Shown here: positions 1 through 29,816 of the stretch, piece after piece
Layout of the letters: each line of letters starts with the position of its first letter
Numbering within the stretch: the stretch's first letter is position 1
NCBI RefSeq assembly: GCF_041886205.1
Contig: NZ_CP169029.1
DNA: 64,000 nt
From: Escherichia coli
GTDB lineage: Bacteria > Pseudomonadota > Gammaproteobacteria > Enterobacterales > Enterobacteriaceae
Direction: 5' to 3' (one strand)
Program-made: the position numbers and the translations under genes
The notes under the pieces: generated by a model
Databases searched by the model: none
Told to the model about the DNA's origin: nothing
What the model saw: only the letters and a program-made list of their open reading frames with translations

Positions 1-3000
1 CCACCGTCAGGCCGCACGATGCCAGCCAGCGGCGGCTTTCCTCACTCACCCGGTCAGCCAGGATTTCACTTTCCAGCCGGTCGAGCATCTGCACCAGCAC
101 CGGCGGGAACACCACACTGCCACCGTCTTCGCCGCCGGACTGCTGAAGGGTATCCGCCAGGCTGCGGCGCTGCGTTTTCGCCTGCTCACCGGTGGCGGTT
201 TCAACCCTGATGAGTGGCGTGAAGCTCCCCGGCTGATAAATCGTCTGGATGCGGGTCCTGTCGTTCTGTATCGTGGTCAGCCGGTCGCCGTCCCAGCCGT
301 ACCAGGTCACTTGCGGTTTCCGTGACAGCGACATCCAGCCCGTCAGGTCCCGTTCACGCCGCCACACCCGTTTTGCCACCCTGCGGCCCAGCGGGTCGTA
401 AAGATAGCGACTTTCGACCAGCGGCTCTGCATATTGTGTCCGCGTGTAGTGCACCAGCCGGTGCTGACTGTCGTAATGGTACCGGTGGGTGCGCTCATCA
501 TCCGTGCGGATAACCCCTTCCGGGATGAGGTCGGTTTTCTCCGTCAGCCTGCCGTGACGGTCATACCGGTAAAGATAGTGCGCGTCACGGGCGATACGGT
601 TATCCGGCCACATGCTGAGGGTGCTGTCCGGGTGCAGCTCCGGGTCGGGCAGGCGGTTACCTGCCGGGTCTGTGGCATACGGGATGCGGATATCCAGATT
701 CGCTGCGGTGGTGTGAACGCTGGTCAGCCTGCCGGTGGTGCTGTAGCTGTAACTCCGGGTCTGGCGCGGGCTGCTGATGCGGATGAGTTCGCCGTTGTCG
801 TTCCAGGTGTAATCGCGGTCATACAGCAGGCTGTTCAGGTGCTGGCTCTGTAACTGCCCGGCAGGGGTGTAAGCGGTGGTGAGTTCATTAACGGCCGAAG
901 CTGCGCAGCGTTTCCCGGTGCAGGCGGTCGCGGGTGTACTCCACCAGCGGTGTGTCGCCGAGTTTCATGCCTGCCAGGTAACCGCTGCCGTAGGTCAGCC
1001 ATTCCACGGCGGGCAGGCTGTCCGGTATACAGCGGTTCGCCAGCCCCTGCGCGTTGTACGCATGTCTGGTCTCATGCTGCCAGAGCAGTGCTTCCGTCTG
1101 CGGGTGATGCACCGTCTGACGTTCACCGGTCAGGCGGCCTTTATCATCATACCCGTAGTGCACCGTCACCCGGTGCCCTTCGCTGATATGGCTGATGTCT
1201 GTCAGCCAGCCGCGTGTCGTCATACTGCCACCGCTCTGCCGGTTTCACCCTTCACGGTGCGGTGCGTGAGGCGGTCTGCTTCGTCATAGTGCCAGTGGGT
1301 GACCAGCCCCTCATCCTCACTGCTGGATGAGTTTGCCGGTCAGGTCGTGGTGATAACGCTGTGTGCGGCCGTCAAAGCCGGTTTCCTGTATCGAGCCGGT
1401 CAAGCACATCGTAACGGAAGGTGGTGTGGCTGCCGTTTTCACTGGTCAGGCGGATGACCCGTCCGGCAGCATCGTATTCCATACTGCGCGTCAAGCCCGC
1501 CCTGCGTGGTACAGACGGCCTTTCCCGCGCGCATCGTACTGTGTCCCGTTTCTGCTGCCGTCCGGGGCAATAACGGCGGTCAGGTCACCGGCGGCGTTGT
1601 ATTCATACCGCGTTTCATGGCCCTGCGTGTCTTTCACCGAGCAGTTAACTGTCCACGGCTGTCGTATGCGCGGTACTGGCTCATGCCCTTCCTCGCGGTG
1701 CACCGCCGTCATCTGACCGAAACGGTCATGGTCATAGCGGGTCGTGGTAACCGGAACAGTCAGTGAAGGTCAGCAACTGACCGTAACGGCTCCACGTCAT
1801 GGTTTTCCGGTACTGCCCGTCGCATCCGTCCGTTGTCGCAGGGAAGCTCACTGTGCGCGGATTATCATAACGGTAGCGGGTGATATCGCCGTCAGGGGCG
1901 AGTCTCCTGAATCAGACGTCCGTATTCATCATATTCCCGGCGCATTTCCAGCCCGTCCTGGCCCGGTAGCTGACGTTAACTGGTTGTGGTCGTTATAGTG
2001 AAACGCCGATGCCCTGCCATCCGGCGTGGTGATGCGCGTGATGAGCGCCGCGACACCACATCCGGGCTGTACTCTGTCTGTCCGGCCTGCGGCATCCGTC
2101 TGTGCCTTAAGCCTGCCCACCGCATCAAACTCGACTCTGCGTGACGCTGCCGTCCGCGTGTTCCTTTTTCACCACCCGCTTCAGCCCGGCTTCGCCCTGC
2201 GTGTGCAGCACTTCACGGCGGTTCAGGCTGTCGGTGATGGTGATGCGGTCCTTCTCATACTGATAGCGTGTAGCTCCAGAGCCTGCCGGGTTGAGCTGCT
2301 TCGTCACCCGCCCGGTCACTCGTCGTACCGGTAGCGGATTTCCGGCCGGCCCGCGTAACGGTGCGCCACCATCCGGCCCCGGTGTTGCATCATCGTAAGT
2401 GAAAGCTGCGCACCTGCGTTCCGCTGCGGTCATACACCGCCGCGCAGTTCGCCGCGCTGGCCGTCCAGCGTGTAGCGCGCCAGCGGCGCGGCAGGCTGAA
2501 TTCTCCGGGTATGCCGGGTCGTGCGTCAGCCACACCGCCGACAAGACGGATGCCGTTGTCCGGGCCGTATTCGGTGTACCCGGGCAGTGTGTCGAGGAAA
2601 AGCGGACGGTTCCGAGACCGGCGGGAAGATAAAGAGTGCGCGCTGCTCGGGCTTGTCCTGCCCGCTGCGCCTGCGTGGTCAGCACCAGCCGGAAGTGACG
2701 CCCGGCACCGTCCGTCACGCCGGTGATTTCGCCGCCGAATGTCACCCGCCGGCCTCGCGGTGGAACGTCAGCGTCCGCCCGAAGCGGTCCGCCAGCCCGG
2801 TCAGCACCCGGTACGGCGGCAGCGCGCGCAGGCAGCACCTCGTCCGCTTCCGGCACCCGCTCACGACCAGCCGAGCAGCCACCACGGCCCCTGCAGCGCT
2901 GTTCGTCGCCAGATAACGATGCGGACTTAAGCGGATATCTTCCGGCAGCGCCTGCCAGAGTGCGCCTAGCCGTGTGACCGTTCATCCAGCTCCGCCACGC

Positions 3001-3441
3001 CGCCGCGCACCAGCCACAGTGACTCGCTGCGGCTGTAGCCGTCCTCGCCGGGAAACAGCGTGCTCAAAGTGACAGGCTCCTGCCGCCGTTGTCAGCTGAG
3101 TATCAGTGCGTCATCGCGCAGCTGTAAGCGGATATCCGCAGGCGCTTTCAGCCGGGGCCGAGGCTCCCCACCGGCGCGGGCGTTCTGGTCCGGTAGCTGC
3201 TGTAGGTGCGGGAGAGGATGAACGGCAGCGGGCGCGGGCAGGGCGATGTCGGTCTCGCCGGGCAGGCACCTTCGCACCGAGCAGCGGATTGACCGGATGG
3301 CCGGACGTCACCCCGCCGGACACGCCGAACAGGCCACGCCGGTGGGCGCGCCGATGCGCACCCGGCTGCCGAACCCTCGGACAATGCCGCGGCCGCCTTG
3401 CGGGTCATGTCGCCCTGACGCGCCGCCGGTTTTCCGCTCAT
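1..3441 (-). pseudogene. Rhs-family YD-repeat protein, N-terminal and core part only; C-terminal toxin domain lies beyond the window start; reading frame broken many times
   Basis: Minus-strand ORF starting at 3441 begins MSGKPAARQGDMT (typical Rhs N-terminus); downstream fragments carry YD-repeat sequence (e.g. YGYDDKGRLTGE, RYEYNAAGDLTAV, ITTPDGR); fragments lie in different frames. Confidence 0.8.
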
Positions 3442-3479
3442 GAATCAATTCCTCTTTCTGCTTATTAATAATGGCTTGT

Positions 3480-5693
3480 CTGTTACTGCACCAGTACCGT
3501 TTTAACAGGTGCACCCGACCCTAGTACTGCTCGCATATCCGGCGTATCCGGGGGGTGAATCTTTCGGCATCAGGCGTCATCCGGTGCGGGATCGTCGAGG
3601 CTGCCACAGTTCCAGTTAATCAACTGGCGCAGTCACCGTTCACCTGCTCGACTCACCCTGCCAGAGTGAATGTGCGTGCCGTTGAGAAAGATTGCTGCCG
3701 TCCTTCGTCAGCACCAGCCTTGCCTCACCACAGCAGAGCTCCAGATGCCACAGGCGAGATAAACTCGCGGTCTGCCCGTGTGTCAGTCCTTCATTCGTCT
3801 TCTACCACCGGTGAAAGGCGGCGTGATTCCCCACATTGACGTCTGTAGCCCAGCCCGACCCTGAACCAGTGATCCGAAGCAGCCCTGCCTGTGAGGACTG
3901 CAACAGACGCCACCGAGGTGTGGTCGTAATGCCGCCTACCGTCGTCTGGTACGCCCACCGTCAGCGCACGAACGAGTCGCCACCGTTTCCACTCTGAACA
4001 GAACCCACGTTGATGATCTGGTTACCGCCCACCGTCTCCACACTGGTTCATCCCCCACTCGTCTGTATCTGATTAACGCCAATGTTCTGGATCTGGTTAT
4101 TGGTACCGGCGATCGCCTGGTTGTTGCCAATGGTCTCGGCATGGTTGTTTATCACATCCGTGGTGCGGTTATTCAGCACCTCAGGTGTTCATCTGTCTTC
4201 TGCGCGTGGATGTAGACCTGTTCTTTCCCTGTCGCATCGTCAAACTTCAGTTCATTAAACCCGCTGCCCGTATACGTTTTCGAGCGGATGGTCATCTGCG
4301 TCTTCGTTCCGGCAGGCTGCCGGGTGTGCGGTTTTCCTGGTGGTAGGTACGCCCCATAATGATCGGCTGGTCCGGATCGCCGTTGAGGAAGTCCACAATC
4401 ACCTCCTGACCCACACGCGGTATCGCCAGGTGGCCAAAACCGGTGCCTGCCCACGCCTGTGCCACACGGATCCAGCACGAACTGTCTTGGTCTGCCGGGT
4501 TATAACGGTCCCAGTTGAACTTCACCCGCACGCGACCATGTTCGTCGCAGAAGATTTCCTCGCCTGCCGGTCCTGTCACGACAGCGCTCTGCGGGCCGTC
4601 AACCAGCGGTTTCAGCAACGGCTGTGGTCGCCATGTTCTGTCTGCCGGGATCACCGCAAAATGGTTATCCAGCGCCGTCCCCGCTCCCTGCCGTCCTGGC
4701 ACCGCCTGTGGCTGTTCGCCGTGCAGTTCACTTGCCACCACCTGCCATTCCCGGTTCAGGTTCGCCTGCGGATGCCCCGTCAGCACAATTCGCCGTCCCG
4801 GCCATATCTCCGGCGAGCGGCTTGTTCCCCGCGCGGTTTCTGCGTTGTTGCGCCAGCCGTCCATCTGCCAGCGGGCAAAGTTCTGCCCGTGGGCACTCTC
4901 GAAACGTCCGGGGTAGTCATACACTTCATACTGCGTGCGCTGGTAGTCCTGGTGCTGGCCTTCCTGTTCAAAACGTCCGGCCCAGCCGGGTCGCTTAAAG
5001 GTGTAGTCTTTGTGTTCACCACGGAAGAAGGGCGGATTTGTGCGCTGTAGCGGAACTGGCTGATGCAGAGGGTGCTCACCTCGGTACGGGTGTTCGGATT
5101 CCAGGGATTTCAAAAGATTCGGGCAGATAACGCGACTGTGTCGCACAGCACCAGGCTCTGGTCGGTACTTTTGTAAGCATGCTCCTCATAAAAGAAGATG
5201 CCTTCCTCCGCCGCCATCCGGCACAGGAAATCGTAATCAGTCTCACCGTACTGGACACAAAACTCACGGGAAGGATGCGGCTCGCTGAACAGCGGACTCC
5301 ATTCGGTCACCCCGTTTTCCTGCAACATCGTGCCGAGGATGCTTTCGATGTCCTCGTTCTGGAAGATACGGAAGTTCTGGCGCAGACCGGCACGCCACAG
5401 CGGCGGGTGCACCTTCATGCTGTACAGCATCTGGTTTTTGTCGTTCTCCCCCAGTTCAAACCAGGTCACCACACCTTCACCCGGCGCTGTACGTCATCGC
5501 CCTGCCATACCGTCAGGTAGGCCATTTTGTCCAGCACCTGCGCAAATTCAAGGGAGAGAAACTGCTGGCTGACCAGAGAGAGATCGAGGGAAAAAAGCGA
5601 AGAGAGTGACTGGTTCAGATGAAAGGAAACCACCGCAAACGCATCCGGTGGCAGGCCGTCCACTTCCAGTGTGAAACGTAATCCGGTTGACAT
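3480..5693 (-). pseudogene. vgrG: VgrG spike protein (TssI), frameshifted; 3' end approximate
   Basis: Fragments at 5466-5693, 5110-5472, 4292-5146 and 4173-4478 (minus) read MSTGLRFTLEVDGLPPDAF..., ...GRTYHQENRTPGS..., MTIRSKTYTGSGFNELKFDDATGKEQVYIHAQK, matching VgrG gp27/gp5 modules; frames differ between fragments. Confidence 0.8.
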
Positions 5694-5850
5694 AGCAACC
5701 TCTGGGGTTAGGAAAAACAGACAGTTCGCTGTTAAAGCGGCTGTGACAGTACAGTGTTACGCTTGCGTTCAGGCACGCTACCGCCGAGTTTTCCGGCAGT
5801 CGCCATCTCCCTTGCTAGTACCCTAACTGACAACCTTTTTTTTATGGTGT

Positions 5851-5890
5851 AATACAAAAACAGCATCCGGCCTGATAGCCGGATGCTGTT
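5851..5890 (-). terminator. Rho-independent terminator immediately downstream of hcp, upstream of vgrG
   Basis: Inverted repeat cagcatccggc / gccggatgctg (5861-5888) with 6 nt loop, followed on the minus strand by a T-run (A-run 5851-5860 on plus). Confidence 0.55.
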
Positions 5891-5898
5891 GGCTTAAC

Positions 5899-6425
5899 TT
5901 ATGCTTCCAGCGGTGCGCGCCAGTCGTCGGCACCGGAGGTGCCAGATTTGACGTGTTCCCATTCAATTTTCGCGGTAGGCCAGTGAAACTTCGAGCAACT
6001 GGGTGAACTCGCGTTTCGCCGGGTCCTGGCAATGCGGCATATGCAGTTCTCATATCGCCAATCGTCGAATCAGTCAGGCGGGGAGCGAGATAGTGCTCCT
6101 GTTTGCCTTCCACAGAGGTACGCCACCAGTGAAGTTCAGCGGTTGGGCAGCATTTCGCCGGAGGCCAGTGCGTTGTACATCAGCGGAACCGCTTTGTTCA
6201 GCGCCACGGTAAAAATGAAAGGCTTGTGAGCGCACGCTGACCCGCAGGCTGACCGGACTGAGGATCGGTCCGCACAGATAACGTTATGCAGGAATTCCTG
6301 CACCAGCATCTCCGTCTTCGTGCCCCTGCACATAGATGTTGCCGACAGAATCAGCGGTAAATGCACCTGCAGTAATATTTCCCTGGGTCTGACCAGTGAT
6401 GGAAGATATAACACGGTGTTGGCAT
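5899..6425 (-). pseudogene. hcp: Hcp (TssD) tube protein, frameshifted
   Basis: Minus-strand translation from 6425 begins MPTPCY... and ends ...PLEA*; internal fragments ...EMLVQEFLHNV...HKPFIFTVALNKAVPLMYNALASGEML and VEGKQEHY...LTDSTIGDMRT match the Hcp family; length 527 nt is not a multiple of 3. Confidence 0.8.
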
Positions 6426-7134
6426 TTGTAAACTCCTTGTTAACGTGGTTAATTACTACTTACAATGACCTGCCGTTAATCCCAGACAGGCAGATGCAGC
6501 TCACTTCACGGAACCGCATCATTTTTCAGTATTTTTTACATACAAACCGAGCTAGAATTTACGGTTGTCGTAAAAACTATTTTTAAAATCATTACATAAC
6601 TCTCATTCAGCAAATAACTTAATAATATATATCTGGATAGCCATACCCAACTGTTCAAAGTCCGTATTGCCTCCATAAAATGGCCAACAGCGCGAACCAA
6701 CTGAAAATAAATATTGTATTTATCCTTTCTGAATTATCATTTTGATAATTTTTGAAGATATTCCTTAAAAATACCCACTTAATCAATCACAGTAAACACA
6801 TGTATAAATAAGCAATCATTAGATTAGCTCATGTTTAATGAAATTATTATATACTTCAATAAGTTACATAAAAAATCTATATTTAAATTATTGCCATAAT
6901 ACACCTGACGCGAATTGCACAGGTTCACACAATCTATTTAACGCTTGCAGAATACCCCTCTTTACCATCGATAAAAAGTCCTTTTCTTATTTATTTTGAA
7001 GCGTAAAATGCGGGGTGATGAAGGAGCTGGTGATTTTATTTTCACCGCCATTAGGGCGGCATTGCCGATATTTTTTTGCGGTACAAATATGCCGTGTTCA
7101 TGGCCTGTACGAGATAACATGACGGATTACTTTT
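6426..7134. promoter_or_regulatory. AT-rich divergent intergenic region between hcp-vgrG-rhs (minus) and tssB operon (plus); presumed promoters
   Basis: ~700 bp non-coding, visibly AT-rich compared with flanking genes; sits between divergently oriented T6SS genes; no specific promoter elements verified. Confidence 0.35.
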
Positions 7135-7646
7135 ATGAGCAAAAAATTTGAAGGCAGCGTCGCGCCTCGCGAGCGTATTAACATATCGTATGTCCCAAAA
7201 ACAGATGGCCAGACGGCTGAAGCGGAACTTCCGCTTAACATGCTCGTTGTCGGCGATACCGGAAATACGCAGGAAAACATCCCCACTGGATGAACGTCAG
7301 GCAGTTTCCGTTAACAAGCACAATTTCGGTGCAGTGATGGCTGAAGCAGCCATTGGCCTCAATTTTACTGTCCCCGCCACGCCTGAAGGGAAGCACAACA
7401 GACGATGAACTGAATGTGGCGCTGAATATCAAATCACTGGAAGCTGACTCTTTCACCAGATAGCGTGGCCCGGCAGGTTCCGGGAAGCGAGTAGTAATCG
7501 CTGGAACTGCGTGAAGCACTGACTGCACTGAAGGGGCTCGGCTGGGTAAACCTTCCGGCATTCCGTACCCAGCTCCAGGCATTGCTGGAAAATGAAGAGT
7601 CCCGCGAGCAGTTGCTCAAAGAAATCGGTCTGGTGAGCAATAAATA
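7135..7646 (+). pseudogene. tssB: TssB (VipA) small sheath subunit, frameshifted
   Basis: Translation from ATG 7135: MSKKFEGSVAPRERINISYVPKTDGQTAEAELPLNMLVVGDTGNTQENIP then stop; continues in another frame as LDERQAVSVNKHNFGAVMAEAAIGLNF; TssB-family N-terminal signature. Confidence 0.75.
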
Positions 7647-7958
7647 ACCACCACGATTCCATTAAACAGGGTTATCCAGGACATGACGGCACACAAAAAT
7701 ATCTCCGGGACATACCACCTCTCTGTTGCAGACATTCTGCAGGTGCTTTACCAGGTATGTTTCAGCCCGTCCGTTGAAATCAACCAGGACTGGTGTGGCT
7801 GCGCTGATTACAACACTGGATCGCCGTATCAGTGATCTATTGGATGAGATTATCCATTTTTGTGAGTTTCAGCAGAGCGCGTCGCACTGGCAGCGCGTAC
7901 TTCACTGATGGCGAAAGGCCGGTTCCAGAAACACAGCTAAAACAGAAGGATTTTCAGT

Positions 7959-9461
7959 ATGTCTTTACAGGAAGAGGAACTCTGTTCCCAGTCATGCCGG
8001 GCAGCCTGGAGCAGGCATCGTCGCTGCTTGATCAAATCATGGCACAGACCCGTATTCAGGCCCGGTTCGGAAGGTTATGACGTTGCCCGCCAGGGTGTGA
8101 CAGCCTTTATTGCCAGCATCCTGCAATCCACTGCATCTGCCGAACCGGTCAATAAACTGGCCGTGGACAGCATGATTGCAGATATTGATGAACGCATCAG
8201 CCGCCAGATGGATGTCATCATCCAGGGCGCGCCTGCCTTTCAGCAGGTCGAATCGTTCTGGCGCTCACTGAAAACCATGGTGGATCGCGTTGATTTCCGT
8301 GAAAACATCAAGGTCAACGTGCTTCATGTCACCAAAGCAGGGAACTTCTGGAAGACTTTGAGTTTGCGCCAGAAATTATTCAGTCCGGATTTGATCAAGC
8401 ACGTTTATTCGTCCGGATTCGGACAGTTTGGCGGTGAACCCATCGCTGCCGTGCTGGGCGCTTATGAGTTCAAAAATACCGCGCCTGACATGAGACTGTC
8501 GGCAAGACGCCAGTGCCGTGGGCGCAACGGCGCACGCACCGTTCCTGTCCTCCGTTTCCCCGGCGGAGTTTATGGGGCTGAACTCGTGGACCGAACTGCC
8601 TAATATCAAAGATCTTTATGCCATCTTTGAAGGTCCGGCCTACACCAAATGGCGCGCCCTGGCGTGACTCGGAAGATTCGCGCTGGATTCAGGGCTTACG
8701 GCACCCCGTTCTTCCTGCTTCGCCAGCCCTGGTCACCAGCAGATAACCCTGTTAAGAAGCTTTAACTATCACGAAGATGTCAGCCAGAACCACGAAGATT
8801 ATCTGTGGGGTAATACGGCCTGGATGCTGGCATGCAATATCGCAGACAGTTTTGCCGAATACCGCTGGTGTCCAAACATTATCGGCCCGCAAAGCGGCGG
8901 CGCGGTGAAAGATCTGCCGGTGCATCTGTTCGAAACGATGGGGCAGATTCAGGCCAAAATCCCAACCGAGGTGCTGGTCACCGATCGCCGCGAATTTGAA
9001 CTGGCTGAAGAGGGTTTTATCACCCTGACCATGCGTAAAGACTCTGATAATGCAGCCTTTTTCTCTGCAAACTCGGTACAAAAACCTGAAGCACTTTCCG
9101 GGAAAAGATGCAGAAACCAACTATAAGCTGGGTCTGCAGTCTCCCTGATCTCTTCATCATCAACCGGTTAGCGCACTACATCAAGGTGTTGCAGCGTGAA
9201 CATACTGGGGTCATGGAAAGAAAGGAGCGACTTAGAGAGGGCAGCTCAGACACCCTGGATCCGTCAGTATGTTGCCGACCAGGAAAACCCGCCGGACGGA
9301 CGTGCGCAGCCCGCAAACCTCTGCGCGCAGCCAGAGTTGAGGTTATGGATGTGGAAGGCGAACCCGGCTGGTACCAGGTTGCGCTAAGCGTGAGGCCTCA
9401 TTTTAAATTTATGGGGGCAAATTTTGAGCTTTCCCTGGTCGGCCGGTTAGACAGGGAGTAA
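7959..9461 (+). pseudogene. tssC: TssC (VipB) large sheath subunit, several frameshifts
   Basis: Fragments SLLDQIMAQTRIQ, EGYDVARQGVTAFIASIL, PVNKLAVDSMIADIDERISRQMDVIIQGAPAFQQVESFWRSLK and C-terminal ARVEVMDVEGEPGWYQVALSVRPHFKFMGANFELSLVGRLDRE match TssC; pieces are in three frames. Confidence 0.8.
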
Positions 9462-9466
9462 CACAC

Positions 9467-9893
9467 CATGAGAGTACCGGATCGGGAAAAGAACCACAGG
9501 TTCTCTTTTTTGAGCGTATGGAAGCCTCTTCGGCCAGAAACCGGGCAGGGAGGCAGTATTCATTCGCTCAGGCAATCCATTCGCCAGAACCTGACGAAAC
9601 ATTCTGAGTACCCGGTCCGGTAGTTGCCGGGGTGCGCCTGAGCTGGGCATTGATGAACCGGAAGGGGCTGAAAACTTCCGCGAATCCATGAGTCGGGCCA
9701 TCGAGCAATGTATAGAACGCTATGAACCCCGGATCTCACACGCTGAAGTGCAGGCAGTGGTTTCATCCGCCTCCAGCCCGCTGGATACGGCTGCTTCATA
9801 TTACAGCCTGGGTGACATTTCAGTCTGAAACGCATGAGGTGCTTGAATTTGATATGGCACCGAATGCAGCCAGCATTACCGGGTGGACTGACA
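9467..9893 (+). pseudogene. tssE: TssE baseplate (gp25-like) protein, frameshifted; assignment from position and size
   Basis: ~140-codon gene slot between tssC and tssF starting ATG 9467 (MRVPDREKNHRFSFLSVWKPL...); frame is interrupted; identity based mainly on synteny. Confidence 0.45.
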
Positions 9894-9894
9894 A

Positions 9895-20265: not shown

Positions 20266-21679
20266 ATGGCAATGGACTTACGCGATCCGAATGTCTGGAT
20301 ATCGCACCTGCTGGAAAACCTGCCGGAAGAGAAACTGGCATCGGCGCTGAAAGATGACAACCCGAACTGGGAGTATATCGACGGCGAAATCGTCAAGCTG
20401 GGATCGCTGGCCCACAGTCAACTGGATATCCCGGAACTCCAGCGCCGGGGGCTGGTCATTCTGGCTTCGGAGAGTAAGGATTTTCGTCTGCTGGCGCATC
20501 TGCTGAGAACCCTGCAACACGCCGGTGATCCTCACTCCCGCATTGCGCCTGCTGGCGCTGTATGTGGAGCATTACTGGGCGGTGGCTGCGCCGCAGAATA
20601 TGGCGCATAAAAAACGCTTTGCCAGCCAGGTCATTAAACGCTTTGAAACAGGTATTGAAGTTTTTTCACAGAACGCCGCCACAGCGCAGCGCGATGCGCT
20701 GTCAGGGGAACTGGCAAAACTGGCGCAATGCTGGCAGTCACATAACGCCCCGGAACTGGCACAGGCTACTGATGATCTTTTTGCCCCGTACCAGCGTGCG
20801 TTTAATCGTGCGGCACCGGTTCCTGTCCCCACTCCGGCGGCCTCCGGTAGTTCACCACAGACCACCGCCACGTCTGAAAGCGGCGTGACGCAACCCAGTG
20901 CTCCGGCTCCCCAAATCGTCATCGACAGTCACGACGACAAAGCCTGGCGCGACACGCTGTTAAAAGTGGCGGCCATTTTATGTGAACGCCAGCCGGATTC
21001 ACCGCAGGGCTACCGTCTGCGCCGCCATGCGCTTTGGCAGAACATCACCAGTACGCCCCAGGCGGAAAGCGATGGCCGTACTCCACTGGCTGCGGTCTCC
21101 GCCGATATGGTGGCAGATTACCATGCTCAGCTCGGTAGTGCCGATATGGCGCTGTGGCAGCAGGTGGAGAAAAGCGTACTGCTGGCTCCTTACTGGCTGG
21201 ATGGTCACTGCCTTTCTGCACAGACGGCGCTGCGTCTGGGTTACAAACAGGTGGCAGACGCCATCCGCGATGAGGTCATCCGCTTCCTTGAGCGTCTGCC
21301 CCAGCTTACCGGGCTGCTGTTTAATGACCACACACCGTTTATCAGTGAGCAGACGAAACAATGGCTGGCAGCTTCGCCCGACGCCAAAGTTGCACCGGTT
21401 GCGCAAATCGGTGAGGAATCGAAGGCAGCCAGAGCCTGTTTTGCTGAGCAGGGTCTGGAGGCGGCGCTGCGATATCTGGACATGCTACCCGAAGGCGATC
21501 CCCGCGATCAGTTTCACCGCCAGTACCTTGCCGCACAGTTGACGGAAGAGGCGGGGCTGGTACAGCTTGCGCAGCAGCAGTACCGGATGTTGTTCAGGAT
21601 GGGATTGCAGATGATGGTGGCAGACTGGGAGCCGTCCCTGCTTGAGCAGCTAGAACAAAAATTCACGGCAGAACAATAA
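20266..21679 (+). pseudogene. tssA: TssA (ImpA N-terminal domain) protein, one apparent frameshift near 20.53 kb
   Basis: N-terminal fragment MAMDLRDPNVWISHLLENLPEEKLASAL...SESKDFRLLAHLL (ImpA_N-like) in one frame, remainder (384 aa ORF 20525-21679) in another. Confidence 0.7.
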
Positions 21680-21697: not shown

Positions 21698-24600
21698 GTG
21701 TTCAGATTACCAACACCCCGACTACTCAGCGGACTCAAATCAGCCCTGCGACCGGCGATGCCCCGGTTTAAAGTCTCTGCTTTCTGGCTGCTGATACTGG
21801 CGTGGATTTTTCTGCTGGTGTGGATCTGGTGGAAAGGCCCGACGTGGACGCTGTATGAAGAACAGTGGCTCTAAACCACTGGCGAACCGCTGGCTGGCAA
21901 CGGCGGCGTGGGGGATTATTGCCCTGATGTGGCTTACCGTCCGGGTGATGAAGCGCCTGCAACAGCTTGAAAAACAGCAAAAACAACAGCGCGAGGAAGC
22001 CGTTCGATCCGCTCAGTGTGGAACTGAACGCCCAGCAGCGTTACCTCGACCGCTGGCTGCTGCGCCTGCAACGCCATCTCGACAACCGCCGTTTCCTGTG
22101 GCAATTGCCGTGGTATATGGTCATCGGCCCGGCGGGCAGTGGCAAAACGACACTGCTGCGCGAGGGGTTTCCGTCAGACATTATTTATGCCCCGGAGGGC
22201 TCGCGCGGCGCAGAACAACGCCTGTACCTTACGCCCCATGTCGGTAAACAGGCGGTGATCTTTGATATCGACGGCACACTCTGCGCTCCCGCTGATGCGG
22301 ATATCCTGCATCGCCGTCTGTGGGAACATACCCTCGGCTGGCTGAAGGAAAAGCGCGCGCGCCAGCCCGCTGAACGGGATTATTCTGACACTCGATTTAC
22401 CCGATCTGCTGACCGCAGACAAGCGCCGCCGTGAGTATCTGCTACAGACGCTGCGCAGCCGCTTGCAGGATATACGCCAGCATCTTCACTGCCAGCTACC
22501 GGTTTACGTGGTACTGACCCGGCTTGATTTATTGCAGGGTTTTGCCGCCCTGTTCCAGTCCCTGAACAGACAGGATCGTGATGCGATTCTGGGTGTCACG
22601 TTCACCCGCCGTGCCCATGAAAATGATGACTGGCGAACAGAGTTGAATGCTTTCTGGCAGACATGGGTGGATCGAATGAATCTGGCGTTGCCGGATCTGA
22701 TGGTCGCTCAGACTCACACCCGCGCGTCTTTATTCAGTTTTTCCCGCCAGATGCAGGGAAGCCGTGAACCCCTGGTGTCACTGCTTGAAGGTCTGCTTGA
22801 CGGCGAAAATATGAACGTGATGCTGCGTGGTGTCTATCTCACCTCGTCACTGCAACGCGGCCAGATGGATGACATCTTTACCCAGTCCGCCGCCCGCCAG
22901 TACCGGCTGGGCAATAACCCACTGGCGTCCTGGCCCCTGGTGGACACCGCGCCTTATTTCACCCGCAGCCTGTTCCCGCAGGCATTACTCGCAGAGCCTA
23001 ATCTGGCAACGGAGAGCCGTGACTGGCTGATGCGTTCCCGTCGCCGCCTGACGGTTTTCTCTGCCACAGGCGGCGTGGCGGCACTGCTGCTCATCACCGG
23101 CTGGCATCACTATCACAACGGTAACTATCAGTCCGGCATCACCGTGCTTAAGCAGGCCAAAGCCTTTATGGACGTGCCGCCTCCGCAGGGGAAAGACGAC
23201 TACGGCAACCTGCAACTGCCGCTGCTGAACCCGGTACGCGATGCCACACTGGCCTATGGCGACTGGGGCGACCGCAGCCGTCTGGCCGATATGGGACTGT
23301 ACCAGGGACGACGTATCGGGCCTTATGTGGAACAGACCTATCTGCAACTACTAGAGCAGCGTTACCTGCCCTCGCTGTTTAACGGGCTGGTCAAAGCGAT
23401 GAACGCCGCGCCGCCGGAGAGTGAGGAAAAACTCGCCGTGCTGCGCGTGATGCGAATGCTGGAGGACAAAAGCGGACGCAATAATGAGGTGGTGAAGCAG
23501 TATATGGCAAAACGCTGGAGCGAAAAAGTTCCACGGCCAGCGTGATATCCAGGCACAACTGATGTCCCATCTTGACTACGCGCTGGCTCATACTGACTGG
23601 CATGCAGAGCGTCAGGCGGGCGACGGTGACGCCATCAGCCGCTGGATGCCATATGACAAGCCCGTGGTATCAGCACAGAAAGAACTGAGCAAACTGCCTG
23701 TCTACCAGCGGGTTTACCAGAGCCTGAAAACGCGGGCGCTGGGCGTTCTTACCTGCTGACCTCAATCTGCGTGACCAGGTAGGGCCAACCTTTGACCAGG
23801 TCTTTACATCTGCCGATGACAACAAACTGGTTGTTCCACAGTTTCTTACCCGTTACGGCCTGCAAAGCTATTTTGTAAAACAGCGCGATGAACTGGTTGA
23901 ACTGACGGCAATGGATTCCTGGGTACTCAACCTCACCCGCAGTGTGAAATACAGTGACGCCGACCGCGCGGAAATCCAGCGCCAGTTGACCGAGCAGTAT
24001 ATCAGCGACTACACCGCTACCTGGCGAGCCGGGATGTGACAATCTGAATATCCGCAATTTTGAGTCCATTGGACAACTGACCGGGGCGCTGGAGCAGGTT
24101 ATCAGCGGCGACCAGCCTTTGCAGCGGGCGCTGACTGTGTTGCGTGACAACACACAGCCAGGCGTCTTTTCTGAAAAACTTTCTGCCAAAGAACGGGATG
24201 AGGCTCTGGCAGAACCGGACTACCAGTTGCTCACCCGCCTCGGGCATGAATTTGCCCCGGAAAACAGTACTCTGGCAGTACAGAAAGACAAAGAAAGCAC
24301 GATGCAGGCCGTGTATCAGCAACTCACCGAGTTGCACCGCTATCTGCTGGCAATTCAGAACGCGCCTGTACCAGGGAAATCGGCGCTGAAAGCCGTGCAG
24401 TTGCGGCTTGATCAGAACAGCAGCGATCCGATATTCGCCACCCGCCAGATGGCAAAGACACTGCCTGCTCCGCTCAACCGCTGGGTTGGCAGACTGGCTG
24501 ACCAGGCCTGGCATGTGGTGATGGTGGAGGCCGTTCACTATATGGAAGTGGACTGGCGCGACAGCGTGGTGAAACCGTTTAACGAGCAACTGGCAAATAA

Positions 24601-25228
24601 CTATCCGTTTAATCCGCGTTCTGCACAGGATGCCTCACTGGATGCCTTCGAACGCTTCTTTAAACCGGATGGCATACTGGATACCTTCTACCAGCAGAAC
24701 CTGAAGCTGTTTATCGACAATGACCTGAGTCTGGAGGATGGCGATAACAGCGTCATTATTCGCGAAGATATTATTGCGCAACTGAAAACCGCGCAGAAAA
24801 TCCGTGACATCTTCTTCAGTAAACAGAACGGTCTGGGAACATCCTTTGCCGTGGAAACGGTATCGCTCTCCGGCAACAAACGCCGCAGTGTACTGAACCT
24901 TGACGGCCAGTTAGTCGATTACAGCCAGGGGCGCAACTATACCGCCCATCTGGTCTGGCCTAACAATATGCGCGAAGGCAACGAAAGCAAACTGACGCTC
25001 ATCGGCACCAGCGGCAACGCGCCGCGCAGTATCAGCTTCAGCGGGCCGTGGGCGCAGTTCCGCCTTTTCGGGGCCGGACAACTGACCGGAGTTCAGGATG
25101 GCAACGTTACCGTGCGCTTTAGCGTGGACGCTGGCGCGATGACCTACCGTGTGCATACCGACACTGAGGATAACCCATTCAGCGGTGGGTTATTCAGCCA
25201 GTTTGGTCTGTCAGACACACTGTACTGA
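21698..25228 (+). pseudogene. tssM: TssM (IcmF-like) membrane-complex protein, several frameshifts
   Basis: N-terminal transmembrane segments, Walker A motif GPAGSGKTTLL (fragment 21967-22434), ~1170-codon span ending with 369 aa fragment 24119-25228; at least five frame changes. Confidence 0.8.
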
Positions 25229-25238
25229 GGAGGCAGGG

Positions 25239-26593
25239 ATGGATAGTAACGGACTGACACAAACTATCGTTACCGGCAGTGACCCGCGCGGGGCTGCCGG
25301 AATTCAGTGCCATCCGCGAGGAAATAAACAAAGCCAGCCACCCGTCACAGCCTGAGCTGAACTGGAAACTGGTGGAGTCGCTGGCACTGGCGATTTTTAA
25401 AGCCAACGGTGTGGATTTACACACCGCCACCTACTAGACGCTTGCCCGGACACGGACACAGGGACTGGCGGGATTCTGCGAAGGTGCGGAACTGCTGGCG
25501 GCAATGGTAAGCCACGACTGGGATAAGTTCTGGCCGCAGGGCGGCCCGGCGCGTACTGAAACGCCGGACTGGTTTAACTCCCGAACCGGCAATATTCTGC
25601 GTCAGCAAATCTCCTTTGCGGAATCCGACCTACCACTGATCTACCGCACAGAGCGGGCATTGCAGCTTATCTGCGATAAGCTCCAGCAGGTGGAACTGAA
25701 GCGCGTTCCGCGCGTGGAGAATCTGCTCTATATTTATGCAGAACACGCGTAAACGGCTTGAACCCCAGACTGAAGAGTAACACTGAGAACGCCGCACAGA
25801 CCACGGTCAGAACGCTGATTTATGCCCCGGAAACACAGGCATCTTCCACACCAGAAGCGGTAGTGCCTCCCCTGCCCGGCCTGCCTGAGATGAAAGTGGA
25901 AGTGCGCAGTCTGACAGAGAATCCCCCACAGGCCAGTGTGATAAAGCAAGGCAGTACGGTAAGAGGGTTTATCGCAGGGATCGCCTGTTCAGTGGCTGTC
26001 GCCTCAGCATTGTGGTGGTGGCAGGTCTATCCGGTGCAGCAGCAACTGTTACAGGTTAACGACACCGCTCAGGGCGCAGCAACGGTGTGGATGGCCTCAC
26101 CTGAACTCGAAAACTATGAGCGCAGGCTGCAACAACTTCTTGATACCTCCCGGTACAGCCGCTGGAAACCGGGATGCAGATGATGCGTGTTGCCGACAGT
26201 CGCTGGCCGGAAAGCCTGCAACAGCAACAGGCCTCGACACAATGGAATGAGGCACTCAAAACCCGCGCACAGAGTAGCCCGCAGTTGCGTGGCTGGTTGC
26301 AGACCCGCCAGGACTTACATGCTTTTGCAGATCTAGTGATGCAGCGCGAGAAAGAGGGACTAACCCTTTCCTATATCAAAAATGTCATCTGGCAGGCGGA
26401 GCGGGGACTGGGGCAGGAAACACCCGTTGAGTCTCTGTTGACGCAGTACCAGGATGCCCGTGCGCAGAAGCAGAATACAGATGCGCTGGAAAAACAAATT
26501 AATGAGCGACTCGAAGGCGTGTTAAGCCGCTGGCTGCTGCTGAAGAATAACGTCATGCCAGAGGCGGCAACCGGTACCACGGCCGAAAAATAA
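25239..26593 (+). pseudogene. Second ImpA_N-domain T6SS accessory protein (VasL/TagA-like), frameshifted
   Basis: Alternate-frame translation near 25.3 kb gives LPEFSAIREEINKASHPSQPELNWKLVESLALAIFKANGVDLHTATY (ImpA_N signature); followed by a hydrophobic segment (FIAGIACSVAVASALWWW) and a C-terminal region; fragments in three frames. Confidence 0.5.
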
Positions 26594-26616: not shown

Positions 26617-27099
26617 ATGGCAAATATAAGTTATTTATCTTTGAGTGGAGAGACACAAGGGCTGATTTCAGCAGGTTGCTCAACGCTTGATTCTGTCGGA
26701 AACAAAGCGCAGCCAGAACATAAAGATCGAGATCATGGTTTATGCGTTAATGCATTCCATCTCAAGAAGTCAAAATGTCAATCATCATGAATTAATTATC
26801 ACCAAACCGGTTGATAAATCCTCACCATTGCTGGCAAAAGCACTTAGTGACAATGAAAAAATGGCAATATGTGAATTTATACTCTACCGAACCAGTAAAG
26901 CGGGTATTTACCAGCCTTATTATAAAATAAATCTGTCAAAAGCCCGAATATCAAGTATTGATTTTGTCACACCGCATGCTGTCCTGGAAAAGAACTGGAA
27001 CCACAGGAGAGAATTGCCTTTATTTATGAAGATATTTCCTGGGAGCATACGTTAGCCGGTACGAATGCAATGAGTAAATGGCAGGATCGTGTACAGTAA
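26617..27099 (+). pseudogene. hcp: Second Hcp (TssD) copy, two apparent frameshifts
   Basis: Strong RBS (aaggag) then MANISYLSLSGETQGLISAGCSTLDSVGNKAQPEH; continues in other frames as ...SISRSQNVNHHELIITKPVDKSSPLLAKALSDNEKMAICEFILYRTSKAG... and ...RIAFIYEDISWEHTLAGTNAMSKWQDRVQ*, all matching Hcp. Confidence 0.8.
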
Positions 27100-27142: not shown

Positions 27143-28039
27143 ATGGCTGGTTTAAGGAATAACAACAACACACAGAATGCACAGTGGGCTGATTATGTGG
27201 GTGACATTCTTCGGGGGGCTCAGCCGATAAACCAGCTAGTACCTCAGCACCCTTATCTTAACGACGTCCCACTCATTGATGAGTTAAGGCATCAGAACAC
27301 TCATCATGTTATTCTCTTGACACTTGATGTTGCAAAAAAAATACTCAGCCCAATAACATCATTTGATTACATTCATTTTATCACTACACATCCTTCAGGT
27401 ATAAAAGATACACTCGCCTGGTTAGTTAACGCGGGTAAATTAATGACTGAGTTTGATGACAATGGGAAAATTATATTTAACCTTAATGCCTTAAAGTATA
27501 CAAAAGCAAGTTACTTTGAAATACTTGGAGAGAAATATATAAAAATCACAACATCCAGCCCCTGGCTTTTAGAAAAGCTCGGTAAATATATTTTCTCTTC
27601 ACGAGCGCCTCAAGTTCTGGAACTCGCTATTGGCTGGCGAGGAGCTTTATCTGAATCAATAAAAGGAGTTAAGTTCTGTATCTGGTTTTCAGTAGCCTGG
27701 AGAACCATAGAATTTATTATGAGTTCAGAGCGAGATCTGGTTAATTTTCTTGGCGATTTTTCAATGGATGTGGCCAAAGCAGTTATAGCCGGTGGTGTTG
27801 CAACCGCTATTGGAAGCCTGGCTTCTTTTGCCTGTGTTAGCTTTGGCTTTCCAGTAATTCTTGTCGGAGGAGCAATTTTACTGACAGGGATAGTGTGTAC
27901 AGTTGTTTTAAATGAAATCGATGCTCAATGCCATTTATCAGAAAAATTAAAATATGCAATTAGAGATGGACTAAAACGGCAACAGGAACTTGATAAATGG
28001 AAAAGGGAAAACATGACTCCATTTATGTATGTTCTTTAA
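27143..28039 (+). CDS. Hypothetical protein with C-terminal glycine-zipper transmembrane hairpin; candidate Hcp-linked membrane-targeting effector
   Basis: Intact ORF (frame opens at 27128; ATG 27143 has a better RBS ggagag); AT-rich; C-terminal hydrophobic helices AVIAGGVATAIGSLASFACVSF and FPVILVGGAILLTGIVCTVVL; immediately downstream of hcp2. Confidence 0.6.
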   Translation: MAGLRNNNNTQNAQWADYVGDILRGAQPINQLVPQHPYLNDVPLIDELRHQNTHHVILLTLDVAKKILSPITSFDYIHFITTHPSGIKDTLAWLVNAGKLMTEFDDNGKIIFNLNALKYTKASYFEILGEKYIKITTSSPWLLEKLGKYIFSSRAPQVLELAIGWRGALSESIKGVKFCIWFSVAWRTIEFIMSSERDLVNFLGDFSMDVAKAVIAGGVATAIGSLASFACVSFGFPVILVGGAILLTGIVCTVVLNEIDAQCHLSEKLKYAIRDGLKRQQELDKWKRENMTPFMYVL

Positions 28040-28067
28040 CACTCCACCCGTGATATGAGGATTAACC

Positions 28068-28433
28068 ATGCGTTTACATGTTAAATTAAAAGAGTTTCTT
28101 TCGATGTTTTTTATGGCCATATTATTTTTCCCTGCATTCAATGCTTCTTTGTTTTTTACCGGAGTTAAACCTCTATATTCAATAATAAAATGCTCCACGG
28201 AAATATTTTATGATTGGAGAATGTTGATTCTGTGCTTTGGTTTCATGTCGTTTTCCTTTTTAAATATTCATGTAATTTTACTTACGATAATAAAATCATT
28301 CTTAATCAAAAAAACGAAGGTAGTCAATTTCGCCACAGACATAAACAATACAGCTAACTCTTATATTTTTACTAATAGCTATCGTAATAGCACCTTTAAT
28401 AGCTCCTTTTGTCACAGGATATGTCAATGCTAA
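28068..28433 (+). CDS. Small hypothetical inner-membrane protein (121 aa); candidate immunity protein
   Basis: Intact ORF with RBS (gagga) and two hydrophobic segments (FFMAILFFPAFNASLFF; MLILCFGFMSFSFLNIHVILLTII); directly follows the putative effector gene. Confidence 0.5.
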   Translation: MRLHVKLKEFLSMFFMAILFFPAFNASLFFTGVKPLYSIIKCSTEIFYDWRMLILCFGFMSFSFLNIHVILLTIIKSFLIKKTKVVNFATDINNTANSYIFTNSYRNSTFNSSFCHRICQC

Positions 28434-28703
28434 TTATCACCCCTGCGGTAATAATGCGGGGATTTTCCCAGCGAGCAATCTGATATTAAAAATGGCATGA
28501 AATGTAGTAACTGAATATATTTCTCGCAAGGAAGATTCAGCAGTTAAATAACTAAATATTCTAAAACAAACAGTTTTTAACTCCGGTATTCCATGTCCTT
28601 TCTTGCACTGTCTTTGTCAAGAAAGATTTCTTATGCAAAGAATTTTGTATTATTGCCGCCCAGAGATTCCTGGCGGCAGATAGAATCTATTATTGATAGC
28701 GAG

Positions 28704-29486
28704 TTAACCAAATCTTTTCACCATCGCTTTATAGGTCTTTTGCTTAAGTTGCATGATTTGCTGCTCTGTCATATCAGTCGTACTGGCTTCATTCTTGTCG
28801 GGCAATGGTGGAAGCACTTTATATTCATACTTCACCGGCGACCAGGTACGTAGCCCACTCACCTGTTGCCACATCCACCAGCGTGAAACGTACCAGGTAG
28901 CGCAGGGAGATAGCGTCGGTGAGTTTTTCATTTTTATAGTCGGACCATACTGTTGATTTCAGCGCAGAGTCATATTTTCCTGTCTGCAACGTATCCTGGA
29001 AAACAATAATCGCTTTCTGATGCCCTTTTGCAGCCCACAAAACGCAGTGCCTGCATCCAGTTCATATTCTCAGCACTGGCAACATCCTCGTTCTCATTTT
29101 TATCTTTGTTTTTGTTACAAGTCAGAGGCTTTTGCCTGTCCGGGATACTCAGAAAAGAACGTGGAAACAGTATAATATTTTCGCATCTCCTCCTGCATAA
29201 TGGTTTCCGGTGCGCGGTTGCCGGATTGAACAAGTATTACAGGAGAATTAAGGGGAACGCGGAACTCATCTCCATCAAGCGCAGCTTGAATATCCTCTTC
29301 GGATACGGCCAGAGTGGTTTCATTACCGAATAAATCTTTGTCTGTCAGTTGCTGGGGAGTGTTTTTATTAATATTACTTTGTGTGACTTGAGCTTTTTTC
29401 TTCTTTTCATCAATAGAAGATTCAGAGGCACATCCTGCAAGCAGCGAGAATAACACACATATGCAACAAAGCTTTTTTGAATTCAT
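28704..29486 (-). pseudogene. yafT: Lipoprotein YafT-like gene adjacent to aspV, frameshifted
   Basis: Minus-strand ORF from 29486 begins [21 protein letters not shown] (lipobox); continues in other frames down to 28704 (~261 codons total); position next to tRNA-Asp as for K-12 yafT. Confidence 0.65.
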
Positions 29487-29752
29487 AATTGGACACTCCC
29501 TCGCCTGTCATAATCATGGTAATGTTTAGCTAACGATTTTTAATTATATACTCCACTTGAATCAGAACAAACAAAAATAACAGTATATATAAATTCATTA
29601 AATCAATAGAAAAATGAAAATCATAACATTCAAATATATTTAAATTGAATGATTCGATAGTATGATTAAATATTAATGATATGGTCTACCATATGTGATT
29701 AACACATTTACAGCATAACAAAACCATAGACCGAAGAAATAGCGGGATTTAA

Positions 29753-29789
29753 ATGCAAAAAAAACCGCAAAATTAAAAATCTTGCGGTT
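29753..29789 (-). terminator. Rho-independent terminator downstream of aspV
   Basis: Inverted repeat aaccgcaa / ttgcggtt (29763-29789) followed on the minus strand by a T-run. Confidence 0.6.
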
Positions 29790-29816
29790 CTCTGAACTCA
29801 TTTTCATGAGTGAATC

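Follow-up and report, generated by a model that had tools for sequence, protein, structure and literature searches.

The first 29,816 nt of a 64,000-nt stretch of the E. coli contig NZ_CP169029.1 (hereafter the window) carry a T6SS island of a kind that has already been described, the EHEC-type island of the E. coli 'T6SS-2' family known from the aspV-yafV interval, and what is unusual about it is probably the product of a low-quality, possibly chimeric assembly. The identity and synteny of the island, its junction with the tRNA, its broken reading frames, the spectrum of its changes, their absence from other genomes and the mismatch between island and flank are direct observations. From them we infer a technical origin, in which the roughly 250-340 private indels and the accompanying AT->GC changes are consensus errors from a stretch of the assembly with poor support. 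The useful result is a caution on data quality: the region bears the marks of an assembly or polishing step that failed locally, and possibly of a strain chimera at a multi-copy tRNA.

A described T6SS island next to aspV

Positions 1-37019 of the window align to the aspV T6SS locus of E. coli O103:H2 12009 as one HSP with 96.1% identity including gaps, and the aspV island of O157:H7 Sakai likewise aligns as one HSP at 93.2%. Positions 1-29816 are colinear with the annotated islands of both strains, and the alignment of the island to O103:H2 12009 contains no gap larger than 8 bp. By this colinear alignment, all 13 core genes (TssA-M) have homologous DNA in a single cluster, together with two hcp genes, vgrG and an Rhs core. 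The order runs Rhs, VgrG, Hcp, TssB, a small ORF, TssC, E, F, G, TagH, TssJ, K, L, TssH/ClpV, VasI, TssA, TssM, VasL, Hcp, a hypothetical protein, YkfM, a YafT-like protein and aspV, which is the EHEC-type arrangement with its accessory TagH, VasI and VasL and its divergent hcp-vgrG-rhs and tssB-led operons. Fragments of window ORFs also match NCBIfam models for TagH, TssJ, TssK, TssH, VasI, TssA, TssM and TssC.

The island thus corresponds to EDL933 z0243-z0275, Sakai ECs_0212-0245 and O103:H2 12009 ECO103_RS01105-01220, sharing with them the dnaQ-aspV side of its site (which in those strains runs dnaQ-aspV, island, yafV), gene order and orientation, the two hcp genes, the vgrG-rhs module and the yafT-like gene beside the tRNA. 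It differs from them in some 300 small private indels, by which 12 of 13 core genes are broken, in an Rhs core that is RhsB/C-like (93.9-98.7%) and unlike the aspV-linked Rhs family of O103 and Sakai (~80%), and in a flank belonging to a lineage that normally has another T6SS. In K-12, a remnant reading aspV-yafT-ykfM-yafU'-yafF'-yafV preserves the last 2.1 kb and the aspV junction, 96% homologous to the window; there the T6SS was removed by a single deletion of ~30 kb, whereas the window retains all of the DNA with its frames broken.

The biology of such islands is textbook material. TssJ, TssL and TssM form an envelope-spanning complex, and TssE, F, G and K form the baseplate with VgrG. TssA initiates the polymerisation of Hcp into a tube and of TssBC into a sheath, whose contraction drives Hcp, VgrG and an attached Rhs toxin into adjacent cells. 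The sheath is then recycled by ClpV/TssH, and TagH, VasI and VasL serve as accessory proteins. Work on EHEC has described the aspV T6SS of intestinal E. coli and tested its function, in EDL933 by an assay of Hcp secretion in an hns mutant. EDL933 has a 37-kb aspV-associated T6SS (PMC5363993). The family name T6SS-2 is that of Journet & Cascales, as cited in PMC7216683.

At its right edge the island begins directly after the 3' end of tRNA-Asp(GTC), aspV (29817-29893, minus strand), which faces it, as the earlier note had read. A terminator-like hairpin (29759-29793, minus strand) lies just downstream of aspV on the island side. Colinearity with annotated relatives bears out two further points of that note: the neighbour of the tRNA is a yafT-like lipoprotein gene and not an integrase, and the window contains no integrase, IS or phage gene. 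An integrase is also missing from the complete O103 and Sakai islands, and the search that the note had proposed for a repeat of the aspV 3' end, run over the whole O103 island and 11 kb beyond it with up to 3 mismatches allowed, returned no second copy. The two marks of an integrase-mobilised tRNA island are thus missing where they were sought, the integrase beside the tRNA in the window and the tRNA 3' repeat at the far end in O103. The far (yafV) side of the interval consists in O103 and Sakai of Rhs tips and ISAs1 elements, and the window ends before it; in these relatives the ISAs1 (H-repeat) elements separate the Rhs gene from yafV just past the window start, which qualifies the note's reading of an island without IS.

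Broken reading frames across the island

The earlier note had credited the island with a complete repertoire of core genes, which is true at the level of DNA homology only: DNA for all 13 core genes is present, and an intact frame remains in 1 of 13, tssJ. Among all island genes only TagH, TssJ and VasI can be translated at full length from the orthologous start codons, and no ORF of the island is longer than 476 aa. In TssK the C-terminus is frameshifted, and the other 11 core genes stop at 2-47% of their length, as do the remaining broken accessory genes apart from ykfM and a 304-aa ORF. Fragments of TssC, TssH and TssM score under the curated NCBIfam cutoffs. A potentially functional machine with intact core frames is thus not what the sequence of the window encodes, though a similarity-based gene scan calls a complete T6SS.

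The minus-strand end of the island starts with the Rhs core of the RhsB/RhsC family (1-3441), which has its start codon at 3441 and is cut by the window start, leaving ~800 nt of its 3' end, the toxin tip and the immunity gene outside. Its start codon lies 79 bp from vgrG, a YD-repeat core directly downstream of vgrG being what is expected of T6SS cargo, and Pfam RHS_repeat families are found on homologs of this Rhs protein. DNA identity to rhsC of strain R1 is 93.9% over 3,441 nt with 62 gap openings, rising to 98.7% against rhsB/rhsC cores over positions 1-1300. The Rhs adjacent to aspV in wlxctx60 was ruled out as a source, as it has no DNA similarity to that of the window. Frameshifts leave the Rhs N-terminus, where a PAAR domain would be expected, untranslatable, and a 286-aa 'ORF' at 2125-2985 shares only 53% identity with Rhs proteins and is therefore out of frame. 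The frameshifted vgrG (tssI; 3520-5693, minus strand), aligned to the O103 VgrG CDS, meets its first stop at codon 75 of 713 and is closest to the VgrG paralog of L003. The first hcp (tssD) copy (5899-6425, minus strand) carries 7 insertions and stops at codon 24 of 172. Between it and tssB lies an AT-rich divergent intergenic region (6426-7134; GC 41.5%) with the same indel density as coding DNA, at the place where work on EHEC locates a bidirectional promoter (PMC13141884).

On the plus strand, tssB (7135-7647; 9 insertions, stop at codon 52 of 166), tssC (7959-9461; 21 insertions, with an N-terminal fragment matching TIGR03355 below its cutoff), tssE (9468-9891, placed by alignment to the O103 CDS), tssF (9895-11772; 33 insertions and 4 deletions) and tssG (11736-12816) are all frameshifted, and indel density breaks from high to low inside tssG at ~11.9 kb. 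The intact tagH, encoding an FHA protein (12841-14121; TIGR03354, 344 bits), shows 0 differences from O103. It is followed by tssJ (14118-14642), which has 4 substitutions absent from all other records searched; an exact-sequence lookup found no record of its protein. In tssK (14645-15977) a +1 insertion at 15809 replaces the C-terminus, and the profile match ends at 387 of 429. Next come a frameshifted tssL (DotU; 15982-16742, by alignment to the O103 CDS), tssH (clpV; 16751-19521) with 14 indels, an intact vasI (19518-20261, by alignment and NCBIfam), tssA (20266-21679) with a +1 insertion at 20535, and tssM (icmF; 21788-25228) with 6 insertions.

The remainder of the plus-strand run comprises a frameshifted VasL-domain gene (25239-26593, aligned to O103), the second hcp (tssD) copy (26617-27099), in which a +1 and a -1 indel lie 259 bp apart, and two low-GC accessory genes (27143-28551), both frameshifted and without a Pfam or NCBIfam match. 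The first of these is a 304-aa hypothetical (yafU in K-12) that falls short by its last 6 residues only, and an exact lookup of the resulting 298-aa product returned as its only matches genes cut off at contig ends; the second, ykfM, stops at 76% of its length. The yafT-like lipoprotein gene (28690-29486, minus strand), recognised by homology to O103 and K-12, is frameshifted as well.

Indels and substitutions confined to the island

The abnormal indel load, which does not figure in the earlier note, is restricted to the island. Against O103 we counted 344 gap openings, mostly 1-bp insertions of random bases, all within 1-29757 and all but one by 29155, the last (at 29757) being a 1-base difference in an A-run; the 7.2 kb of flank at 29817-37019 have 0. 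Compared with wlxctx60, the flank shows 4 single-base gaps in 34.2 kb, three of them within the rRNA operon and the fourth where the island begins, and the probability of so few flank gaps at the lowest rate seen in the island is ~1e-32. The stretch from 5.7 to 29.8 kb contains 143 substitutions and 149 indels (~1:1), with 129 insertions against 20 deletions. Substitutions run AT->GC rather than GC->AT by 101 to 22 (4.6:1), with strand asymmetry. Substitution divergence from O103 is nonetheless 0-0.5% over 12-28 kb, and the low overall identity of 94.8% arises because of the indels and a different Rhs/VgrG allele. Origin from a divergent Escherichia species or as a distinct allele was ruled out as its explanation, given a flank that is 99.9% E. 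coli and substitutions of at most 0.5% over 12-28 kb.

These changes are private to the window. Among 5,426 complete E. coli genomes no other carries any of them, and the best match for 6-12 kb is 96.5%. Four window-specific products (the frameshifted TssK, the TssJ variant, the YafT fragment and the TssH fragment) are absent from a 153-billion-gene index, and a 34-mer spanning four insertions has no match in JGI metagenomes.

Could the island instead be a genuine decayed relic in this strain, with the ~300 indels and the substitutions accumulated as real neutral mutations after inactivation? Mismatches in hcp-tssF fall evenly on the three codon positions (26/21/23) and intergenic DNA is affected as often as coding DNA, as expected without selection, whereas flank genes have the normal third-position bias; neutral decay of a dead cluster would erase codon-position bias just as sequencing errors do, which counts against our preferred reading. 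Decay of T6SS at this locus is also documented, in K-12, in the tssA pseudogene of the Sakai island and in the reported degeneration of the O157 system (PMC12981562). We nevertheless regard a relic as quite unlikely. Indels are as common as substitutions in an island otherwise 0-0.5% diverged by substitution from functional O103-type islands (12-28 kb), insertions exceed deletions 6:1 and are placed at random relative to repeats, no indel exceeds 8 bp, and large deletions and IS insertions are absent. Bacterial mutation accumulation yields 4-23 substitutions per indel, with indels concentrated in simple repeats and a bias to deletion (PMC6330053), so that the insertion excess, the non-repeat placement and the 1:1 ratio are all opposite to bacterial spectra. 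The roughly tenfold variation in density with its break inside tssG, the lack of the changes in every other genome and the existence of near-clonal relatives without the island altogether also argue against decay. The AT->GC excess points the same way, as this direction is the opposite of the E. coli mutation bias.

The sharp boundary of the changes at the island edge, the directional and strand-asymmetric substitutions and the random insertions would also fit a localised biological hypermutation, insertion-prone and AT->GC biased, that acted on a newly arrived T6SS island and left the core genome beside it untouched. We consider this exceedingly improbable: the density varies in patches that follow neither genes nor transcription units, a second example is absent among >2,000 island carriers, and no mechanism known to us in enterobacteria would scatter insertions of single random bases across 30 kb at a density of 0.2-4%. 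A mismatch-repair-deficient mutator would fit the A:T->G:C transitions, but not the untouched flank or the indels outside base runs.

Assembly error, the reading we favour, has difficulties of its own. Density varies patchily over a ~tenfold range with no simple gradient, from clean stretches at 1-1000 and 12.6-15.8 kb to a peak at 1.5-4.2 kb within the Rhs-vgrG part, and it rises again at 28-29.2 kb before the noise ends ~660 bp ahead of the tRNA; no single simple artefact model predicts this pattern. Quality decay toward a contig end is weakened as an explanation, with positions 1-1000 clean against an rhsB/rhsC reference and the worst stretch further in. Homopolymer-type errors of the 454, Ion Torrent or nanopore style were ruled out by the random placement of insertions relative to base runs (observed 66/22/18/7; random expectation 57/27/11/5%), as were Dam/Dcm methylation-motif errors by inspection of substitution contexts, in which no such motif was apparent. 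To our knowledge, no documentable sequencing-platform signature combines random insertions with AT->GC changes.

A haplotype switch at the tRNA

The note's description of the island as fixed does not hold in E. coli: ~2,100 of 5,426 complete genomes (39%) carry an island of this type, and in K-12 a deletion has left only its last 2.1 kb. Absence from close relatives with the same flank, which the note had named as the sign of a recent gain, is what we observed. All six genomes with the closest flanks (99.2-99.9% identity) carry a different T6SS at aspV, among them the best flank match, wlxctx60, which outside the rRNA operon differs by 5 SNPs in ~29 kb. Alignments to genomes that carry the other island break off at 29811, and the switch from O103-like to wlxctx60-like sequence falls between 29816 and 29939, ~120 bp that include the 77-bp tRNA. 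Reading the damage as that of a pseudogenised or 'ancient fixed' island would bring an artefact into evolutionary inference.

A chimeric assembly could account for the sharp boundary. Low-coverage or unpolished long reads may have been the source of the island DNA, possibly from another strain than the one that set the flank sequence, and joining or polishing might have run from one sequence into the other over the tRNA that they share and the Rhs/VgrG repeats. The aspV tRNA exists as a repeat in several copies, and public short-read contigs break off at it.

A mismatch between flank and island could also arise by natural recombination at aspV, because different T6SS islands occupy this site in nature. 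A real, intact island might have newly replaced the usual T6SS of the lineage at or through the tRNA, by homologous recombination or site-specifically with an integrase acting in trans, with the indels as overlaid sequencing noise. Such a replacement, which we consider unlikely, would agree with the other T6SS in all closest flank relatives, with a switch located at the tRNA and with both island types starting no more than 6 bp from the 3' end of the tRNA. It leaves unexplained the restriction of the noise to the island and its end ahead of the tRNA; a crossover within ~120 bp is unlikely for homologous recombination, and neither the window nor the complete O103 and Sakai islands hold an integrase or att repeat.

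The use of tRNA genes by different T6SS islands, a further point in favour of a natural replacement, extends beyond this lineage. SPI-6 and SPI-20 of Salmonella, similar to the window island by their description, are both at aspV and represent different T6SS acquired at the same tRNA, SPI-20 without obvious direct repeats (PMC2907695); they belong to other T6SS lineages and carry other cargo, such as the saf/tcf fimbriae of SPI-6. Related T6SS clusters adjoin tRNA-Asp, tRNA-Phe or tRNA-Ser in other genera, 9 of 10 with the same polarity. Within E. coli, the TagJ/TagK-type T6SS (ExPEC/AIEC PAI I of LF82; 6EVA; wlxctx60) is inserted at the identical point, immediately 3' of aspV. Like the window island it has no integrase, yet it is of a different family without DNA homology to the window island. 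Only 117 of the 5,426 genomes carry it at a megablast coverage of at least 80%. The survey presents aspV as a swap site for different T6SS islands rather than a fixed locus.

The aspV island and its gene order

The island at window positions 1-29816 is an already-described system, the aspV T6SS of EDL933 (37 kb; PMC5363993), of the family named T6SS-2 (PMC7216683), and near-total loss of reading frames is its sole unusual feature. A megablast search of 5,426 complete E. coli genomes with positions 1-25000 matched annotated T6SS loci, and positions 1-37019 aligned to O103:H2 12009 in a single HSP with gaps of at most 8 bases. Projecting the O103 annotation through this alignment, we placed Rhs (<1-3441), VgrG (3520-5693) and a first Hcp (5899-6425), all on the minus strand, followed by TssB, a 74-codon ORF, TssC, TssE, TssF and TssG; then TagH, TssJ, TssK, TssL, TssH/ClpV, VasI, TssA and TssM; and finally a VasL-domain gene, a second Hcp, a 304-aa hypothetical gene, YkfM and a YafT-like lipoprotein gene (28690-29486, minus strand) ahead of aspV, dnaQ and rnhA. 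NCBIfam models matched the window's own ORFs or fragments to TagH, TssJ, TssK, TssH, VasI, TssA, TssM and TssC. ARAGORN located a minus-strand tRNA-Asp(GTC) at 29817-29893, its 3' end towards the island, and an identical copy at 38041-38117 within an rRNA operon; the two 77-nt genes lie 8.1 kb apart.

The aspV locus of O157:H7 Sakai has the same gene order; other small hypothetical genes (4888-7514 of that locus) stand in for part of the module between the second hcp and aspV. In the window, this low-GC (37-39%) module (27143-29486; the 304-aa hypothetical, YkfM and YafT-like genes) had no Pfam or NCBIfam match, and the region 3' of the second hcp could be a variable cargo slot, possibly with effector/immunity pairs. 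The claim in the earlier note that the window holds no integrase, IS or phage gene was borne out: annotated relatives have no such gene in the corresponding DNA, and the window is colinear with them over its full length.

Loss of reading frames and its limits

The longest ORF in the island, by mechanical listing, is 476 aa, whereas TssM, TssH, VgrG and Rhs are expected to reach 700-1,400 aa. Translation from the orthologous starts gives full-length products for TagH, TssJ and VasI only. TssK is frameshifted close to its end, ykfM stops after 76% of its length, the 304-aa accessory ORF loses just its final 6 residues, and all other genes stop after 2-47%. The complete T6SS repertoire described earlier thus holds as gene homology but not as reading frames: one of 13 core genes is intact, a loss that the first reading overlooked. 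At the 304-aa gene, 15 public contigs in the index carry a truncated product, and all six examined (from NCBI, ENA and Logan) end within 2 nt of one site (...ATGTATGTTCTT). The window's own +T frameshift near the 3' end of this gene (~28033-28039) coincides with that site. The shared contig end points to a repeat, or the edge of an IS insertion, common to some lineages at this position.

The frames are lost because of 344 gap openings relative to O103, including 217 insertions and 80 deletions of a single base; the alignment revealed no large deletion or IS insertion in the island. All but one of these openings lie by 29155, the exception being a 1-base difference in an A-run at 29757, and the 7.2 kb past the tRNA is free of them. 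Over 34.2 kb, only four single-base gaps separate the flank from its closest genome, three of them within the rRNA operon and the fourth at the island boundary. A flank this clean would have a probability of about 1e-32 if gaps arose at the lowest rate seen in the island.

At the Rhs/VgrG end (1-5.6 kb), the best identity to any genome is 84.9% (84.5% across the vgrG-rhs junction among complete genomes), and this low identity has two components, a different Rhs family and superimposed indels. By sequence the Rhs core belongs with RhsB/RhsC (93.9% identity to the rhsC gene of strain R1, and 98.7% to rhsB/rhsC cores over 1-1300) and not with the Rhs family that O103 and Sakai carry at aspV, to which it is ~80% identical; hence the third-position-biased mismatches in this stretch. 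Indels are densest in 1.5-4.2 kb, where they reach 36 per 500 bp, and an apparent 286-aa ORF at 2125-2985 is read out of frame, as its protein is 53% identical to Rhs and its DNA 90%. Almost no indels fall in positions 1-1000 or 4.5-5.0 kb, so the error density is patchy and shows no simple decay towards the window start. This weakened our initial idea of quality decay at a contig end.

Origin of the island sequence

Several independent properties of the changes speak against a biological origin. Between 5.7 and 29.8 kb we counted 143 substitutions and 149 indel events, with insertions outnumbering deletions 129 to 20. Mutation accumulation in ten bacteria yielded 4-23 substitutions per indel, with indels mostly in simple repeats and a deletion bias that pseudogene comparisons share (PMC6330053). 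Inserted bases bore no relation to neighboring runs (run classes observed 66/22/18/7, random expectation 57/27/11/5%), which rules out replication slippage as their source. The substitutions are directional (AT->GC 101 versus GC->AT 22 in 5700-29816), opposite to the natural bias of E. coli, and strand-asymmetric (T>C 34 versus A>G 16 in 5.7-12 kb). By inspection their contexts contained no Dam or Dcm motif, and we could match the AT->GC excess and asymmetry to no documented sequencing-platform or biological signature.

Mismatches in hcp-tssF are spread evenly over codon positions (26/21/23), whereas flank genes have the normal third-position excess. Intergenic and coding DNA are affected at the same rate, and density changes from high to low inside tssG rather than at a gene border. 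The changes are also private to this sequence. None of the more than 2,300 carriers exceeds 96.5% identity over 6-12 kb, and even the indel-free stretch 12650-15800 has no exact match (best 99.9%); it differs from O103 at five positions, four of them in tssJ. None of four window-specific protein products occurs in an index of 153 billion genes, and a single 34-mer covering four of the insertions had no match in JGI metagenomes. Given these properties, we regard genuine decay as very unlikely. A natural case of T6SS decay at aspV, by deletion, is seen on comparing two strains close in the flank: the TagJ/TagK-type T6SS of 6EVA (1410-12001 of its locus) is largely intact except for a frameshifted tssH, and that of wlxctx60 (6207-12660) is reduced to partial tssF, tssE, tagJ and an IS256 fragment.

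The flank (29811-64000) is 99.91% identical to wlxctx60, with only five SNPs in ~29 kb outside the rRNA operon. The few differences fall mostly within that operon (38277-43198), among them a cluster over 12 nt of the 23S gene (40734-40745), and probably reflect heterogeneity among rrn copies, not strain divergence. Yet the six closest flank relatives, wlxctx60 and 6EVA among them, all have the TagJ/TagK-type T6SS directly after aspV; this absence of the island from close relatives is the outcome that the earlier note set as refuting its picture of an old, fixed insertion. The best T6SS-2 carrier reaches only 98.6% flank identity. Relative to O103, the island has 0-0.5% substitutions and the flank 1-2% difference, and the first discriminating SNP lies 46 bp past the tRNA. 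The SNP positions therefore place a haplotype switch within ~120 bp that include the 77-bp tRNA. This multi-copy exact repeat is a routine assembly breakpoint, since three public short-read contigs with T6SS-2-type clusters (L014, L018 and L027) end exactly there, and it is a plausible mis-join site.

A genuine recent island swap plus noise would fit the switch at aspV; we consider it unlikely. We think it probable that the near-total frame loss is a sequence-quality or chimera problem. The island would rest on poor data (low coverage or unpolished reads), possibly from another strain, and would have been joined to, or polished against, a flank from good data, so that one cause could explain both the error load and the mismatch between flank and island. 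The Rhs and VgrG stretches have genomic paralogs, and polishing with island-free reads would also fit their partial cleaning.

T6SS islands and tRNA genes

The complete O103 island contains no integrase or att repeat (the aspV 3' end, allowing up to 3 mismatches, occurs just once in 48.9 kb), and no integrase was found in the Sakai island. Their far ends carry Rhs tips and ISAs1/H-repeat elements beside yafV, so IS remnants are to be expected just outside the window. It remains reasonable that the island was not recently mobile by its own means, but "fixed" does not stand: 2,092-2,119 of the 5,426 genomes carry the T6SS-2 core at 80% coverage or more. T6SS-2 and TagJ/TagK-type islands diverge no more than 6 bp from where the tRNA ends at its 3' side, and the window island contributes a terminator-like hairpin for aspV (29759-29793). 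Another T6SS occupies aspV in ExPEC/AIEC (PMC2941450), and in Salmonella aspV is described as a site at which different T6SS were gained, SPI-20 having no obvious direct repeats (PMC2907695).

We surveyed 20 loci from other species with relatives of the VasL gene, including Citrobacter, Pseudocitrobacter, Trabulsiella, Phytobacter, Yokenella, Superficieibacter and E. whittamii. Ten have a tRNA downstream, at six tRNA-Asp (among them L019, L023, L027 and L032; one locus also has tRNA-Gly), three tRNA-Phe (L015 from C. sedlakii, L016, and L025 from Trabulsiella) and two tRNA-Ser sites (L022 from Phytobacter, L030 from Yokenella), and nine of the ten share the E. coli polarity towards the tRNA. 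The distance between the end of the related cluster and the tRNA gene is 1.6-8 kb in the other enterobacterial genera. No integrase lay between cluster and tRNA in the C. sedlakii (pheU context with dsbD), Phytobacter and E. whittamii loci inspected. The arrangement in E. whittamii (yafT-like, aspV, dnaQ) is that of E. coli, but the VasL of this species is just 72% identical. T6SS islands thus have an old association with tRNA 3' ends, with repeated replacement rather than fixation, and the adjacency recurs across genera, in the inspected loci without an integrase in cis. In the MAG "Citrobacter sp." HRGM_Genome_0066 (L014, L018), VasL is 97% identical to the E. coli protein on one contig and 74% on another, and the former may be a mis-binned E. 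coli contig.
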